Source of the DNA: an uncultured virus (IMG/VR IMGVR_UViG_3300042879_004886)
Lineage: Duplodnaviria > Heunggongvirae > Uroviricota > Caudoviricetes
IMG/VR virus record: IMGVR_UViG_3300042879_004886
Reading direction: 5' to 3' (one strand)
DNA: 20,000 nucleotides
Shown: piece after piece, positions 3,227-9,623 of the stretch
Layout of the letters: each line of letters opens with the position of its first letter
Numbering within the stretch: the first letter of the stretch is position 1
Position numbers and translations under genes: made by a program
Notes under the pieces: model-generated
Database searches by the model: none
Told to the model about the DNA's origin: nothing
The model's input: the letters and a program-made list of their open reading frames with translations, nothing else

Positions 3227-5197
3227 TTATTGCAGTCTTATTGTTTGCGCTGTTCCGAAAAATTTATCCAAGTAAGCATTGATGTCTGCTTGAGTTTTTA
3301 TATTTCTCAAGTAATTGTCCAGGGGTGTCCCTTGACCATCTCCTACCATACCGAATGATGGGAAACCTCCGCCAGCCGCTTTTTCTTTTGTGGTAGTTTC
3401 TTTCGTGTTTTTTGTTGTTGATTGGGTAGATGTCCTTATTGTTGTTGTCCCGCCACCACCAGTTTGTTGCGCTGGTGCTTGGGCTGGTGTCTGTGCAGGA
3501 ACTTGGGCTGGTGTCTGTGCAGGAACTTGAGCTGGTGCTTGGGCTGGTGCCTGTGACGGAGCTTGAGCTGGTGCCTCTGCCGGAGCTTGAGCTGGTGCCT
3601 GAACTGTAATATTACGTGTAGTTTTAGCTCTACCTGTCACTGGTTTAGTTTCTCCAGAAACCGTTGACTTTCCTCCAGGAACTTCTGTTCTCGTAGGTTT
3701 AGTTTCTGATGGTCTAGAAACTTCTCCTCTAACAACAGTTGGTTTTTGACCAGTTTCAGCTGGCATAACCTCAACAATTCCTGCTGGTCTTGGTGGAACA
3801 TTTGAAGTTGGTGCTCTTGCTGGCTCCGCTGCTCCGATTGCCAAAGCTGCCGTAGTCGCTACTCCAAATTTTTTGGCTAAAGATGGTTGAGCTTCTGGTG
3901 CAACTGTGGAAGGAGATTGTCCGGGTTCAAAATAAGGTTCAAATGGTTGACCTGGTGACCAAGAACCTTCCCCTCTTCTCCATGCCGCCATTTGTTCTTG
4001 GGGAGATAAATTTTGCCACGATGATGGTTGAGTTCTAGATCTTATTGTTATTTCTGGTCGAAGCATTTGTTTCAACCAGCCTGGTAGTTGTTTTGCTTGA
4101 CCTACAAAACCTTGTGGGCTTCTTTGTGTTGCAACAAAATCCGTTGCAATATCTGCCAGTGTTTCAGCTCCTTTTGCCACTTTTCCTGGAACTGATTTTC
4201 CAGTTTCTATTGCTGTTTCAGCAACTTTTGCTGCAGCTTTGCCTGTAGCCTTCAATCCTTCTTTGCCGGCCTCCCCCGCAGCTTTTGCTCCCTGAACCGC
4301 AAGCTTGCCACCCTCAACTCCCGCAACCTTTGCTCCTCTACCAACAATTCCCGCTCCAGCTTCCCCCGCTCTAAAGCCAGGTATTCCACCTAAAACTTCA
4401 CCAGCAAATCTAGATCCTTTTCCTGCTGCAACAGATGTTCCTGCTCCATAGCCAAGCAAACCAATCCCTCCAGCAGCCACAATTGCTTTTGCAGCTTTAG
4501 GGCCATACAGACCACTCAATCTTCCGAAACCGCCAAGAAGGGCTCCAGCTCCTTTAAACGCAGCTCCACCAGCTGCTGTCATTGCCAATCCTTCTGGAGT
4601 TGTCAGAGAGTCCTGCGCACCCCTCAAGAAATCATATGCCATGGCACTATTGGGATCTATTCCTGCCCAAGTTTGTATTGATTTTCCTGCAGAAGGCATC
4701 GAATATTCTCTTCCTTCAGCACCTTTTTTCATAGGAATTACTTCAAGGGGATTGGTTATATCGCCTGCCAAACTTATATATTCATCTCTAGTTAAAACAT
4801 CTGCAAGATCTGGATTTCTTGATAACGCAGTTTGAAGAATTTCTGTTTCATCTGGATTTCTGTCGCCCTCATCAAATTTTTCTTTTCTTGCCAATACAAT
4901 TTCCTTGGCAAGCTGGCTTCTCAATTCTTCATATTTTTTCTTATCTTCTTTAGCTAGAGGAACTTCTCCTTGTGCCATACCTTTAACAAAAGGCATGTTT
5001 TCATATGCAAACTCAGTGTAACCAGATTTATCGGAAATATCCATTAAACCCTGGCCGAGTTTTTCTCTAACATTTGATGGGGCTTTTCTTGTTTTGCTAT
5101 ACTCAATTACACCCAACTCTTCTTTTTCCAGAAGAATCTTATTTTGGTATCTTTGTTCTAAAATAAACTCTACGTTTGGGTGTAATTTTCTGGCCAT
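3227..5197 (-). CDS. Large hypothetical protein (656 aa) with Gly/Ala-rich hydrophobic segments and a QAPA-repeat linker; candidate virion/ejection protein
   Basis: The long ORF has a Gly-zipper-like stretch (GLAMTAAGGAAFKGAGALLGGFG...IVAAGGIGLLGYGAG) and a Pro/Ala/Gln/Thr low-complexity C-terminal third. GATAAATA lies 8 nt upstream of the ATG. Confidence 0.8.
   Translation of the reverse strand: MARKLHPNVEFILEQRYQNKILLEKEELGVIEYSKTRKAPSNVREKLGQGLMDISDKSGYTEFAYENMPFVKGMAQGEVPLAKEDKKKYEELRSQLAKEIVLARKEKFDEGDRNPDETEILQTALSRNPDLADVLTRDEYISLAGDITNPLEVIPMKKGAEGREYSMPSAGKSIQTWAGIDPNSAMAYDFLRGAQDSLTTPEGLAMTAAGGAAFKGAGALLGGFGRLSGLYGPKAAKAIVAAGGIGLLGYGAGTSVAAGKGSRFAGEVLGGIPGFRAGEAGAGIVGRGAKVAGVEGGKLAVQGAKAAGEAGKEGLKATGKAAAKVAETAIETGKSVPGKVAKGAETLADIATDFVATQRSPQGFVGQAKQLPGWLKQMLRPEITIRSRTQPSSWQNLSPQEQMAAWRRGEGSWSPGQPFEPYFEPGQSPSTVAPEAQPSLAKKFGVATTAALAIGAAEPARAPTSNVPPRPAGIVEVMPAETGQKPTVVRGEVSRPSETKPTRTEVPGGKSTVSGETKPVTGRAKTTRNITVQAPAQAPAEAPAQAPSQAPAQAPAQVPAQTPAQVPAQTPAQAPAQQTGGGGTTTIRTSTQSTTKNTKETTTKEKAAGGGFPSFGMVGDGQGTPLDNYLRNIKTQADINAYLDKFFGTAQTIRLQ
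3470..3601 (-). repeat. Coding tandem repeat, 11 x 12 bp encoding (Q/E)-(A/V/T)-P-(A/S)
   Basis: Protein reads QAPA QAPA EAPA QAPS QAPA QAPA QVPA QTPA QVPA QTPA QAPA. It includes a perfect 24-bp duplication, cttgggctggtgtctgtgcaggaa, at 3478-3501 and 3502-3525. Confidence 0.9.
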
Positions 5198-6838: not shown

Positions 6839-7133
6839 CTATTCATTTAACTGCGAAGCATGTGATCATAAATTTGAATTATTTCTAAAGATGAGTGAAT
6901 GTGGAAATCCACTCAAGGAAAAATGCCCAAAATGCAAAAAAAAGAAAGTTGTGCGTGATTGGGCAGACCAAACAAATTCAATTGCCATGGATACAACCCT
7001 AACCCCTTCGAAGGTTAATGGAAGTGCCTGGAAGGAAGTAATAGATAAGATTAAAAATTCAGGCCATGTTCCAAAGAGATACCATGACAAGCTTGAAAAT
7101 TCTGGAAGACATGCTGGTAGATATGTCCGTTAA
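6831..7133 (+). CDS. FmdB-family zinc-ribbon protein
   Basis: MPNYSFNCEACDHKFE...CPKC matches the MPxYxYxCxxCG..FE..CPxC pattern. The start overlaps the HNH stop region. Confidence 0.8.
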   Translation: MPNYSFNCEACDHKFELFLKMSECGNPLKEKCPKCKKKKVVRDWADQTNSIAMDTTLTPSKVNGSAWKEVIDKIKNSGHVPKRYHDKLENSGRHAGRYVR

Positions 7134-7678
7134 ATTTTTGAGTTTACAAGAGACTTAAGAATATAATAACTGTCTATAATATCCGTTACAGGATTAGTCA
7201 GAGATTTTTGCTCAAAGACCGAAATTAAATCGGTCTTTGTCTCTTTTAGGAAGGCTTCATACATTGCCTGTTTATCGGCGTTACCTTTACCTGTGGCGAG
7301 TTTCTTGACACGGGATGGCTCTACGACGGTTACGGGGACGGCGAGCTTATGGAGTTTGTATTTCAATATTCCACAGTTCTCTGCCAGATTAAAAACTCTA
7401 CCGTGTGAGCCGTATGAATATCCTTCTATGCCAACATCTGCAGCCCCAATACATAAATTTGTTGCCCATTCTGAAATGGTATCAAATCTTTCTGTATCGT
7501 GGGCGTATTCCTCAAAACCTTCACCATTAATATTTGGTGCAATTTTTGTAGCAAACTTTTTTGTGTTGGTCAAAAAATAAAATGAGCAATTTTGAAAGCA
7601 GAATTCCCGCTTTTCATCAAAAAGGCAGATGGCTGGGCTGGTTATAGAATAGTCAATCCCTACGAGCATATAGAACAT
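7130..7678 (-). CDS. RuvC-like Holliday junction resolvase (phage type)
   Basis: The RNase H-fold catalytic pattern is present: VGIDYSITSPA, IEGYSY, GKGNADK, DIIDSY. The start may be 7669 (MLVGID). The stop overlaps the convergent Zn-ribbon stop (TTAA 7130-7133). Confidence 0.8.
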   Translation of the reverse strand: MFYMLVGIDYSITSPAICLFDEKREFCFQNCSFYFLTNTKKFATKIAPNINGEGFEEYAHDTERFDTISEWATNLCIGAADVGIEGYSYGSHGRVFNLAENCGILKYKLHKLAVPVTVVEPSRVKKLATGKGNADKQAMYEAFLKETKTDLISVFEQKSLTNPVTDIIDSYYILKSLVNSKI

Positions 7679-7681
7679 ATA

Positions 7682-7689
7682 TATTTATA
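7682..7689 (-). promoter_or_regulatory. Perfect T4 late promoter box TATAAATA upstream of the RuvC-like gene
   Basis: Exact consensus, 3 nt upstream of ATG 7678 or 12 nt upstream of ATG 7669. Confidence 0.6.
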
Positions 7690-7694
7690 CCTTG

Positions 7695-7783
7695 GCCAGC
7701 AGCGGTGGTTCCTTAGCATTACGATGGGTTAATACTTAGAACGGCCCAAAAGGAATGCGTGGAAACATCCCACCGCCGCTGAC
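7695..7783 (-). ncRNA. Candidate structured non-coding RNA (~90 nt, long closing stem)
   Basis: This GC-rich intergenic island has ends that pair: GUCAGCGGCGGUGG with CCACCGCUGCUGGC (14 bp, 2 G-U on minus). Nested helices are UUCC/GGAA, GCAUU/AAUGC and UGGG/CCCA. A CATAAATA box (7789-7796) lies 5 nt upstream on minus. Confidence 0.55.
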
Positions 7784-7796
7784 AGAAATATTTATG

Positions 7797-7828
7797 AAAA
7801 ATCCTTTCCTTGTGGGGAGGATTTTTTT
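7797..7828. terminator. Intrinsic terminator-like hairpin flanked by A- and T-tracts
   Basis: AAAAATCCTTTCC-TTGT-GGGGAGGATTTTTTT sits directly after the stop of the 425-aa gene. The stem pairs better on plus (G-U) than on minus. Confidence 0.65.
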
Positions 7829-9104
7829 AATCAGGTCTTTGTATTGTTTGCAAAGGTCCAGACAAAGGGCCAGCTTTACGCTTTTTCTCTTCTTCTCTGT
7901 TTTTTGCTCGCTGGTTAGCAACTTGTAAAAACGTCGGGTCTACTGCATAACCTTCGCCGCCACCACGCAAGAAAGCATCACCCATCATTTGCTCGCTGTC
8001 GGAATACATTGGATTGTACAATGATGATGCAGCTTTTTTCATTGTCTGATCTCTTGTTGTTACGTCTCCCATTGCACCAGCGACATCATAAGCAAAGTTT
8101 GAAGTAGAAATAGGATCTGACATGAAAACTCCAGAATTAAATCCCATTGGTCTTGTTGCATCAAAATCATTTTTCATTTGTGCAACACGTGTCTGACGCT
8201 CTCGTTGAGGTTTAATCACTTTGTCGCTATAGGCATCTTGGGCCACCTGCTGGGCATAATCGACATTTGATTGCAGACCTCTTGCTACATCTGAAGCGAT
8301 TGATTTTTTTGCAGTTTTAATGTCTTTTGCTGCTCTTGTTGCATCACCTTTTTTTACGTCCTGTAACACATCTGAAAGAAAGTCTAAACCTTCATTTTCT
8401 TTTCCCATATGGGTCTGGAAGGCCAATTCTGCCTGTGATCTTCCTATGTTTGGATCTAATTCGGGAGCTTTTGCCCTGCCTAGAGATTTTTCAAGTTCAA
8501 ATTCATAATCGGCAAATCTCGGATCACTTGTAATTTTTGATCTTGCCAATTCATTATGATGTTCGATTGCATCACCTGCTCTTTCAATTCCTCTTGCATT
8601 TACTTCCTGTGGATCAAGTCTATATGAAAATTCTTTTTTAATGTCATTTTTTATATTATCTGGCATCAAAGCCTCTATACTTGATGTCATGCGTAATTGG
8701 TTATATTTGTTTGATTTTTTTCTATTAAGTGCGTAATGTGGATTGTCTTGTAGTTGCCTTGATTTTTGAAATAGATGCTGTAATTCGTGTCTTAATGCGG
8801 AATTTTCTTGAGAAGTTGGAATTCTAATTTGTGCGGGAGAATCTGTATATATGTTGATTTTATGTGCATCGTGTGATAATTTGACTCCACCGGAATATTC
8901 TTTTTCTTTGGACAAAAATCGATAATCACCTAAAGTTCTACTGTCTTTTGGTTCAACAAATACATAGGTACCTATTCCACCGAGCGCATAGTTTGTCGAT
9001 TTGCCGGTCTTTGCTAAATTTTTTCCTAAAAGATCTGCTCTTGTTCTGGAGGCTTGTATTTGGTCTACAACGCCTTCTACCAAAAATTGTTTAAATCTCA
9101 GCAT
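7827..9104 (-). CDS. Putative virion internal protein with zincin-like metallopeptidase motif (HEXXH)
   Basis: The N-terminus MLRFKQFLVE resembles the T4 capsid-targeting sequence. SALRHELQHLFQ (HEXXH) is followed downstream by YRLDPQEVNAR (candidate third-ligand Glu). TATAAATA lies 5 nt upstream. Confidence 0.7.
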   Translation of the reverse strand: MLRFKQFLVEGVVDQIQASRTRADLLGKNLAKTGKSTNYALGGIGTYVFVEPKDSRTLGDYRFLSKEKEYSGGVKLSHDAHKINIYTDSPAQIRIPTSQENSALRHELQHLFQKSRQLQDNPHYALNRKKSNKYNQLRMTSSIEALMPDNIKNDIKKEFSYRLDPQEVNARGIERAGDAIEHHNELARSKITSDPRFADYEFELEKSLGRAKAPELDPNIGRSQAELAFQTHMGKENEGLDFLSDVLQDVKKGDATRAAKDIKTAKKSIASDVARGLQSNVDYAQQVAQDAYSDKVIKPQRERQTRVAQMKNDFDATRPMGFNSGVFMSDPISTSNFAYDVAGAMGDVTTRDQTMKKAASSLYNPMYSDSEQMMGDAFLRGGGEGYAVDPTFLQVANQRAKNREEEKKRKAGPLSGPLQTIQRPD

Positions 9105-9172: not shown

Positions 9173-9508
9173 TTATTTTGGTTGTGGGTGATGTATTTCA
9201 CAGTGGCAATTTGCACACAATAGATCACACTTATCCAATTCTTTTTTGGTTTTTTCCCATGAGTAAGGCATTCCTTTATGGGATAGTCCAAAATTTTTTT
9301 TATTTGGATCTCTGTGATGAAACTGCAACGCTGCTACGCAAGTTTTGTAGCCACATGATTGGCACTTTCCACCTTTATAATCTATACATTTTTGTTTTCT
9401 TCTTTGTCGGTAAATAGTAACTGCACACCCATTACATAAAGATTTTCTGTGTCCGTTTTTACGATTGTAGATAAATGATCTATTACATCTAGTACATATT
9501 GTATTCAT
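9173..9508 (-). CDS. Small HNH endonuclease with N-terminal CxxC/CxxC zinc finger (putative freestanding homing endonuclease)
   Basis: Motifs CTRC...CNGC, GGKCQSCGY, LQFHHRDP and KCDLLCANCHCEIH are present. ATG 9508 is preferred because CTAAATA (9514-9520) lies 5 nt upstream. Confidence 0.85.
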   Translation of the reverse strand: MNTICTRCNRSFIYNRKNGHRKSLCNGCAVTIYRQRRKQKCIDYKGGKCQSCGYKTCVAALQFHHRDPNKKNFGLSHKGMPYSWEKTKKELDKCDLLCANCHCEIHHPQPK

Positions 9509-9551
9509 ACTATTATTTAGTATTAGCACCCTTTGTACTGCCACACTTAAA

Positions 9552-9623
9552 CTGGAGCGACAGGATTCGAACCTGTAACCAATCCGTTAACAGCGGATTG
9601 CACCACCGTTGTGCTACGCTCCA
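9552..9623 (-). tRNA. tRNA-Asn (anticodon GTT), CCA not encoded
   Basis: Cloverleaf: acceptor TGGAGCG/CGCTCCA with discriminator G; D-arm GCAC/GTGC; anticodon stem ATCCG-CTGTTAA-CGGAT; T-arm ACAGG-TTCGAAT-CCTGT. Confidence 0.95.

Follow-up and report, generated by a model that had tools for sequence, protein, structure and literature searches.

A phage small structured RNA of probable dual-coding origin, free-standing or nested in a protease gene

What kind of element lies upstream of the RuvC-like resolvase gene of an uncultured phage, and from what did it arise? The 20,000-nt stretch of viral DNA analysed here (the window) comes from the genome of a T4-like phage, with genes for a class II ribonucleotide reductase, a Cas4-like exonuclease and a RuvC-like resolvase, and no close cultured relative of this phage was found, the best reductase match standing at 54%. 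A sequence-only reading had placed in the interval 7695..7796 a novel non-coding RNA transcribed from its own late promoter. The structured RNA was recovered within narrower limits, as the promoter falls within that interval and the structure itself spans 7783 to 7695; its novelty holds in so far as it is conserved, covarying, on the minus strand, preceded by its own late promoter and outside Rfam, and its standing as a discrete transcription unit is weakened by the absence of a 3' terminator. A further point, absent from that reading, is that the element has a homologue in sister phages, where it forms part of the 5' coding region of a protease gene. This element, called the rod below, is a phage small structured RNA of probable dual-coding origin.

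Table 1. Features of the rod locus in the window
Feature	Position	Strand	Basis or remark
Late promoter CATAAATA, T4-type	7796-7789	minus	conserved before the element in relatives
RNA rod, 89 nt	7695..7783	minus	covariation and covariance model R1
P1 of rod	7783-7770/7708-7695	minus	
P2 of rod	7764-7761/7712-7709	minus	
P3 of rod	7758-7753/7722,7720-7716	minus	
P4 of rod	7748-7745/7728-7725	minus	
Apical motif U-[CUAAGU]-A (family consensus Y-[Y K A A G H]-R)	7733..7740	minus	invariant columns
3' tail of rod	7688..7701	minus	matches best at the closing W-P-W codons of the sister-phage protease gene
Second late promoter TATAAATA, for ruvC	7689-7682	minus	at loci with and without the rod
RuvC-like Holliday junction resolvase gene	7130..7678	minus	phrog_159, E 1e-27
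425-aa ORF upstream of rod, no known family	7827..9104	minus	
tRNA-Asn(GTT)	9552..9623	minus	ARAGORN
Intrinsic-terminator-like hairpin, A-tract before, U-tract after	7797..7826	minus	

Fold, conservation and setting of the rod

Several elements of the earlier description were borne out: the 14-bp helix with two G-U pairs that joins the ends of the element on the minus strand (P1), the three inner helices (P2 to P4), both bracketing late promoters and the RuvC-like nature of the downstream gene (Table 1). The helix base lies 5 nt past the T4-type late promoter, and the predicted +1 of CATAAATA is G7783 under a 5-nt promoter-to-+1 spacing rule that we take to be that of phage T4. Folding z scores of the element are -4.4 on the minus and -4.1 on the plus strand, with 0 and 1 of 200 shuffles equally stable, and the apical loop of the rod comprises 9-16 nt. 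A branched interior appears in the single-sequence RNA fold of the window, without support from covariation; the alternative hairpin once taken to suggest a three-way junction or a switch is present in the sequence, shows two-sided change at 0/6 pairs among 22 sequences and was given up.

Relatives were assembled by retrieving 80 viral loci with the RuvC protein as query, and these loci were searched with a profile of the element. The profile matched 54/80 loci, namely 41 free-standing copies, 35 of type T1 (the window's type) and 6 of the shorter type T2, and 13 weaker matches nested in a protease gene; the 26/80 ruvC loci that gave no match include some cut-short loci. In these regions upstream of ruvC the rod proved both conserved and covarying. 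Across 22 distinct T1 sequences, a hand-drawn unbranched rod has 94.8% of its cells paired and two-sided change at 9/29 pairs, a level of pairing reached by 0/500 shuffles and falling to 51% or less when the structure is slid, both controls leaving relatedness in. Two-sided change extends to 24/29 pairs in a model-fitted alignment of 47 sequences that includes one antisense row, and P2, which has no covariation within T1, shows it at 3/4 pairs once the other types join in that alignment. Covariation supports the unbranched rod; RNAalifold recovered P1 alone from the first mixed alignment because the short type was misaligned there. The element is a real, conserved folded RNA of uncultured freshwater phages.

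A covariance model built from T1 only (R1), whose strand preference is partly built into the model, finds one sense copy in 4/5 long records and none in 5 others, with no second copy elsewhere in the 10 records. Energy alone favours sense over antisense in 19/22 T1 sequences and in 23/38 overall, a weak preference, so it is the promoter and the pattern of G-U pairs that place the rod on the minus strand. As had been cautioned, the hairpin upstream of the rod (7826-7797) does fold better on the plus strand (-16.9 vs -10.5 kcal/mol on minus); it is a perfect A-tract/U-tract hairpin in relatives and probably closes the upstream transcript, acting bidirectionally. No intrinsic terminator was found at the 3' end of the rod on the minus strand. 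None of 8 public runs considered for expression contained half of the sequence words sought, and the 4 that were aligned comprised assembled contigs, which carry no record of transcript ends, strand or level. The 5-nt spacing between promoter and helix recurs in 34/38 free-standing sequences, a count partly built in, as sequence extraction began at 5 nt, whereas the start of the helix at that base is independent.

The rod is not bound to ruvC, in agreement with the sequence-only reading: in 4/41 free-standing copies it lies ~2.5 kb upstream, before another gene, with two other genes, both carrying promoters of their own, separating it from ruvC; the gene downstream of the rod varies among relatives. 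The TAAATA promoter of ruvC is kept with or without the rod. The true start of ruvC is probably the second ATG (7669), giving a 7-nt leader, because the first ATG is GTG in some relatives and because promoter spacing puts the +1 inside the first ATG. An invariant GG at the end of the rod tail, 11-13 nt before the first ruvC ATG in types T1 and T2, may also serve as a ribosome-binding site. On the upstream side, tRNA-Asn directly precedes the rod's terminator in several relatives; in the window the 425-aa ORF, for which ESM Atlas named no family, and an HNH endonuclease gene (9173-9544) lie between tRNA-Asn and the rod. The slot of this ORF holds different genes in relatives, for example that of adenylosuccinate synthetase in L011.

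Additional observations concern the wider gene content of these phages. At 3227-5197 the window encodes a 656-aa ORF that belongs to no known family and contains a long tract of Pro-Ala-Gln repeats. A permuted two-piece tmRNA, which may hint at the host group, is present in several relatives (L033:2544-2819, L037:2653-2839; also G008, G012 and G013), and in L033 and L037 it lies, together with several tRNAs, directly upstream of a short-type rod. A SpoU-family RNA methyltransferase is encoded among the phage tRNA genes (L518:7640-8200 in G008; also G002, G012 and G014), and the close relative G008 further carries a large cluster of glycosyltransferase, nucleotide-sugar and methyltransferase genes (L515:7358-17525).

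The rod has no real match in cultured phages, where 2 records share a 24-nt match at E 0.3, and a literature search found no description of this RNA, supplementary motif lists, which could hold one, lying outside that search. Among the matches listed by a pattern scan for rod copies many were chance ones, and the scan served solely to gather further true copies; one chance match, L176, is an unrelated viral contig in which units of ~50 nt are repeated in tandem.

The nested form and the origin of the rod

In 13/80 loci the rod lies inside a late gene for a 265-aa protein that has a trypsin domain and, as judged by eye, a lipoprotein-type signal, about 105-195 nt after the gene start, and in 7 clade-A protease genes the nested rod folds with z scores of -3.8 to -6.5. 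Synonymous difference among 20 representatives is 0.16 in the rod codons, 0.18 in codons 1-20 and 0.41 in the protease domain, which is support for RNA constraint, not proof, since gene starts often vary less anyway. Distant proteases (30-40% identity) also have structured 5' coding regions, in which small hairpins are followed by a long helix that ends in C-V-G codons and shows two-sided change at 5/44 and 9/43 pairs. The protease mRNA is nearly leaderless, with its first ~200 nt all structured (e.g. L016:1880-2080, L257:2483-2695, L271:2498-2698), and conserved hairpins in the signal-peptide codons are lost from the free-standing forms. A conserved AT-rich hairpin region additionally lies between the distant protease and ruvC in L495, L508, L509 and L511.

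The protease adjoins ruvC in 84/145 further distant loci, duplicates counted, and this adjacency is spread over the ruvC tree (FastTree, 94 rows), where T1 and nested forms intermingle. Cultured phages gave no real match to the protease, one distant locus was found in bacterial genomes, offering no clue to the host, and a search without positive control for the protease elsewhere in G001, G002 and G007-G009 gave 0/5, fragments only.

It is quite probable that the protease came first and that the RNA domain arose within its gene, given the wide synteny, the match of the rod tail to W-P-W codons, a residual reading frame and helices that end in S-C or C-V-G codons. The best site for the 14-nt tail of the window falls at the W-P-W codons in 8/8 protease genes (9-11/14 bases; ties possible), the window rod still reads AFLLGRSKY(stop) ... 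WPRY in one frame, and other free forms close with helices whose ends are the S-C or C-V-G codons common to the family; against this order, the tails of T2 match best mostly elsewhere than at W-P-W. When the rod-coded peptide was compared with a profile of 31 distant protease segments, 24-91/200 shuffles scored as high; this lack of significant similarity to the distant proteases is a negative outcome that counts against protease-first, and the peptide test does not fix the direction. In a protease-first course of events, deletions on both sides would have cut away the signal peptide together with the protease domain, leaving the promoter, the rod and the last codons in place.

Further free-standing types, T3 to T5, were sought among loci without an adjacent protease, after a TA(A/T/G)ATA promoter. 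Type T3 (11 loci, 13 records by pattern) resembles the nested domain of clade A and has ends unlike those of T1, its 3' end corresponding to S-C codons and not to the W-P-W tail. Run against 22 loci, the T1-only model R1 ranked all 7 T3 loci first (E 5e-4 to 7e-3) and 2 T4-type loci next, in the right places in each case, and missed T5. Type T4 (9 loci, 58 nt), spotted by eye since the type screen required 70 nt, has no clear descent. Type T5 (8 loci) keeps the closing helix of clade B and falls inside clade B on the ruvC tree, and its alignment score is weak, at 21.7 with nested B vs 22.0 with C and a null of about 16. At least one further free-standing form appears to derive from the RNA domain of another protease clade, and the protease was lost while the RNA stayed on no fewer than two separate occasions, probably on three or more. 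A different 109-nt rod, preceded by a late promoter and without the loop motif, lies upstream of ruvC at L417:1375-1483.

Phage small RNAs with a traceable origin are few. Here nested and free states coexist in relatives, and one can trace how coding sequence gave rise to a non-coding RNA gene, apparently repeatedly.

The apical loop and possible modes of action

Among the distinct free-standing sequences, which are related to one another, the motif Y-Y-K-A-A-G-H-R, defined post hoc, occurs in 38/38 and is nearly always unpaired, and the loop is kept although the free-standing types are only 41-58% alike. In 65 protease genes a nested hairpin loop with the motif is found in clades A (15/15), B (8/8), D (5/7) and A' (1/1) and is absent or rare in three groups (C 3/16, others 0/7 and 0/11). 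The nested motif loops fall in two reading frames and crowd towards the start of the protease genes, with 3.0 per kb over the first 215 nt and 0.36 per kb beyond; in clade D the stems show compensation and loop position 2 is G or U. Repeated retention of the RNA points to one six-base loop as the working part. A strict loop-hairpin scan of four long records, which also misses the rod's own lone-pair loop, gave 0, 0, 2 and 2 matches with no enrichment, and the other promoters of the 4 long records lack the motif. The sequence permits a cross-loop C1-G5 pair (C-G; U-G in part of T3) of the kind that pseudotriloop hairpins combine with a 3' pyrimidine bulge. The loop-closing pair is U-A or C-G, not the G-C pair that closes pseudotriloop hairpins (HBV epsilon, IRE type), and a C-G closing pair disfavours the pseudotriloop fold in the part of the source drawn on here (PMC3884659).

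No partner protein for the rod was found among the candidates TROVE (Ro60), SpoU methylase and RegA. A TROVE gene was seen within 4 kb in 0/5 records (70-83% complete), the control being positive in 2/14 genomes; the SpoU methylase is present in 3/5 records, where its presence does not track the loop motif; and RegA is present, with nothing tying it to the rod.

From the observed homology, the conserved rod and the conserved loop, we infer a transcript, its trimming, the binding of a protein and an action in trans. This reading, a late, helix-protected RNA that binds one protein via its apical loop, is held tentatively, at somewhat under even chances. The late promoter would make a transcript starting at the helix base, the 3' end of the rod would be set by trimming of read-through RNA, the long helix would protect the RNA and present the C/U-(G/U)-A-A-G-N loop, this loop would bind one host or phage protein, and the RNA would act in trans, late in infection, as a decoy or sponge. 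Against such an action in trans stand the lack of a terminator after the rod and the GG before ruvC, which fits a read-through leader. A more specific version, in which a protease-born small RNA family was freed at least two and probably at least three times and its decoy loop, borne on a nuclease-resistant rod, titrates a host factor such as an RNA sensor or nuclease of anti-phage defence, is doubtful.

The rod without a terminator and the GG invariant in T1 and T2 make a cis element of the late transcript the main rival, itself rather unlikely: a promoter-proximal hairpin, translated or not, that stabilises the message or recruits an antitermination or translation factor. A cis role would fit the constant position of the rod within about 200 nt of a late promoter, nested or free, and two 93-nt records of a freshwater RNA run, weak and maybe DNA, that span 7641-7730 and join the rod end to the ruvC start. 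It is harder to reconcile with a separate TAAATA promoter right after the rod for ruvC and other downstream genes, with an operon that is over within 0.6 kb, at convergent genes, with a motif confined to this promoter in the long records, and with an invariant loop that a plain stabiliser would presumably not need.

Less probable is a neutral or near-neutral relic, a hairpin spared by chance or shape whose conservation is inherited from S-K-Y codons. Non-coding copies with compensatory changes weaken this explanation, as do the two frames of the nested loop and frame-breaking indels across which the divergent types have nevertheless kept the loop; in its favour are the residual reading frame of the window rod, the interspersion of T1 and nested forms on the ruvC tree, which points to recent exchange, and the many loci without a rod. 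A similarly slim chance attaches to a DNA-level element, namely a single-strand hairpin or cruciform, opened by the promoter, for replication, recombination or packaging. As DNA the window element forms the same rod on each strand (z -3.5 and -3.2), occurs once per record, adjoins a resolvase gene and has a weak energy-based strand preference, but the opposite arm of a cruciform is disrupted by the many G-U pairs of the promoter strand, the helix begins at the predicted +1 and many loci lack the element. Least probable is the special trans case of a mimic of the tRNA T-loop or of the 23S rRNA loop that we take to be helix 43, titrating a translation enzyme or anti-phage nuclease: the loops of L033 and L038 share 8/9 bases with the E. 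coli 23S loop at about 1065-1073, and the locus often lies among tRNAs and permuted tmRNA, but R1 has no match in E. coli 23S, the shared 6-nt core, with C first and G/U second, fits either model loop poorly, and the phage SpoU methylase and the motif do not co-occur.

Should the more specific version, with a protease-born decoy RNA, be true, the protease mRNA would be a dual-function RNA whose RNA role outlasts the protein, and a host defence factor as the partner would make the rod an RNA-only counter-defence. A plain cis stabiliser would still be a new family, worth adding to Rfam.

Comparison with known RNAs

In line with the novelty proposed in the sequence-only reading, no Rfam family lies over the element at E<=5. 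In 12 and 7 related loci the Rfam 15 covariance models match neither the rods nor the nested domains, the lone near-match (E 3.4) being antisense and overlapping the start of the RNA of L367, and in the window, the 12 + 7 loci and one 126-kb record they report tRNAs and permuted tmRNA only. A tRNA or tRNA-like RNA was rejected, as in the window ARAGORN finds tRNA-Asn and nothing else; the CCA that follows P1 there is not kept in L001, L060, L033 and others. Small SRP RNA has an apical GNRA tetraloop and a symmetric internal loop, and was rejected on the lack of an Rfam match and on the 9-16 nt apical loop with its other motif. HDV-like and theta ribozymes fold into a double pseudoknot whose J4/2 strand, close to the 3' end, carries C-K-A-A, whereas the C-K-A-A of the rod stands at the apex of nested covarying helices, again with no Rfam match. 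The L11-binding domain of 23S rRNA is formed by the junction of helix 43 and helix 44; the likeness of the rod is confined to the loop, R1 has no match in 23S, and a mimic of this domain was rejected.

RNAs of the EutX/Rli55 type act as sponges. In the part of the source drawn on here, EutX/Rli55 and ANTAR RNAs are described as regulator-binding hexaloop hairpins in mRNA leaders and small RNA (PMC8934654), and on that account they are the closest analogy for the possible working of the rod. An ANTAR-binding RNA proper was rejected, as the ANTAR loop has A1 and G4 in the same part of the source (PMC8934654), whereas the rod has C/U1, A4 and G5 and usually one loop.

T4 RNA C and D (species 1 and 2) are given in the consulted part of another source as small structured RNAs near tRNA genes with no assigned role, and the rod is like them in being a small structured RNA of a T4-like phage with tRNA genes nearby (PMC3014915). 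Kinship with these RNAs, which the sequence-only reading had named as a precedent, was not upheld, R1 with filters off finding no match on rnaC or rnaD. RNA C ends in a tRNA-like T arm, which the 3' part of the rod lacks, and we know of no coding-gene origin for T4 RNA C or D. The same part of that source describes leader hairpins of the T4 genes e, soc, 49 and I-TevI, which carry the promoter in the 5' strand and hide the ribosome-binding site; the rod resembles them in that it, too, is a T4-like phage hairpin that goes with a late promoter (PMC3014915). An inhibitory leader hairpin of this described kind was rejected, as the promoter of the rod lies upstream of P1 and the ruvC start lies 17-26 nt beyond P1.

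YrlA, a Y RNA with the motif GNCGAAN0-1G near its 5' end in the portion of the source used here, is similar to the rod in size and in its 5'/3' helix, and the GUCGAAG of some rods fits that motif (PMC4201824). It was rejected, as far as that portion describes it, because the word is apical in the rod and reads UUCUAAG in the window, D and T arms are absent and no Ro60 was found in 5 records.

In the dual-function RNAs RNAIII, SgrS and SR1 the RNA function overlaps a protein-coding frame. Unlike in these, the frame here is that of a 265-aa protease, and the RNA part has split off from it in several lineages.
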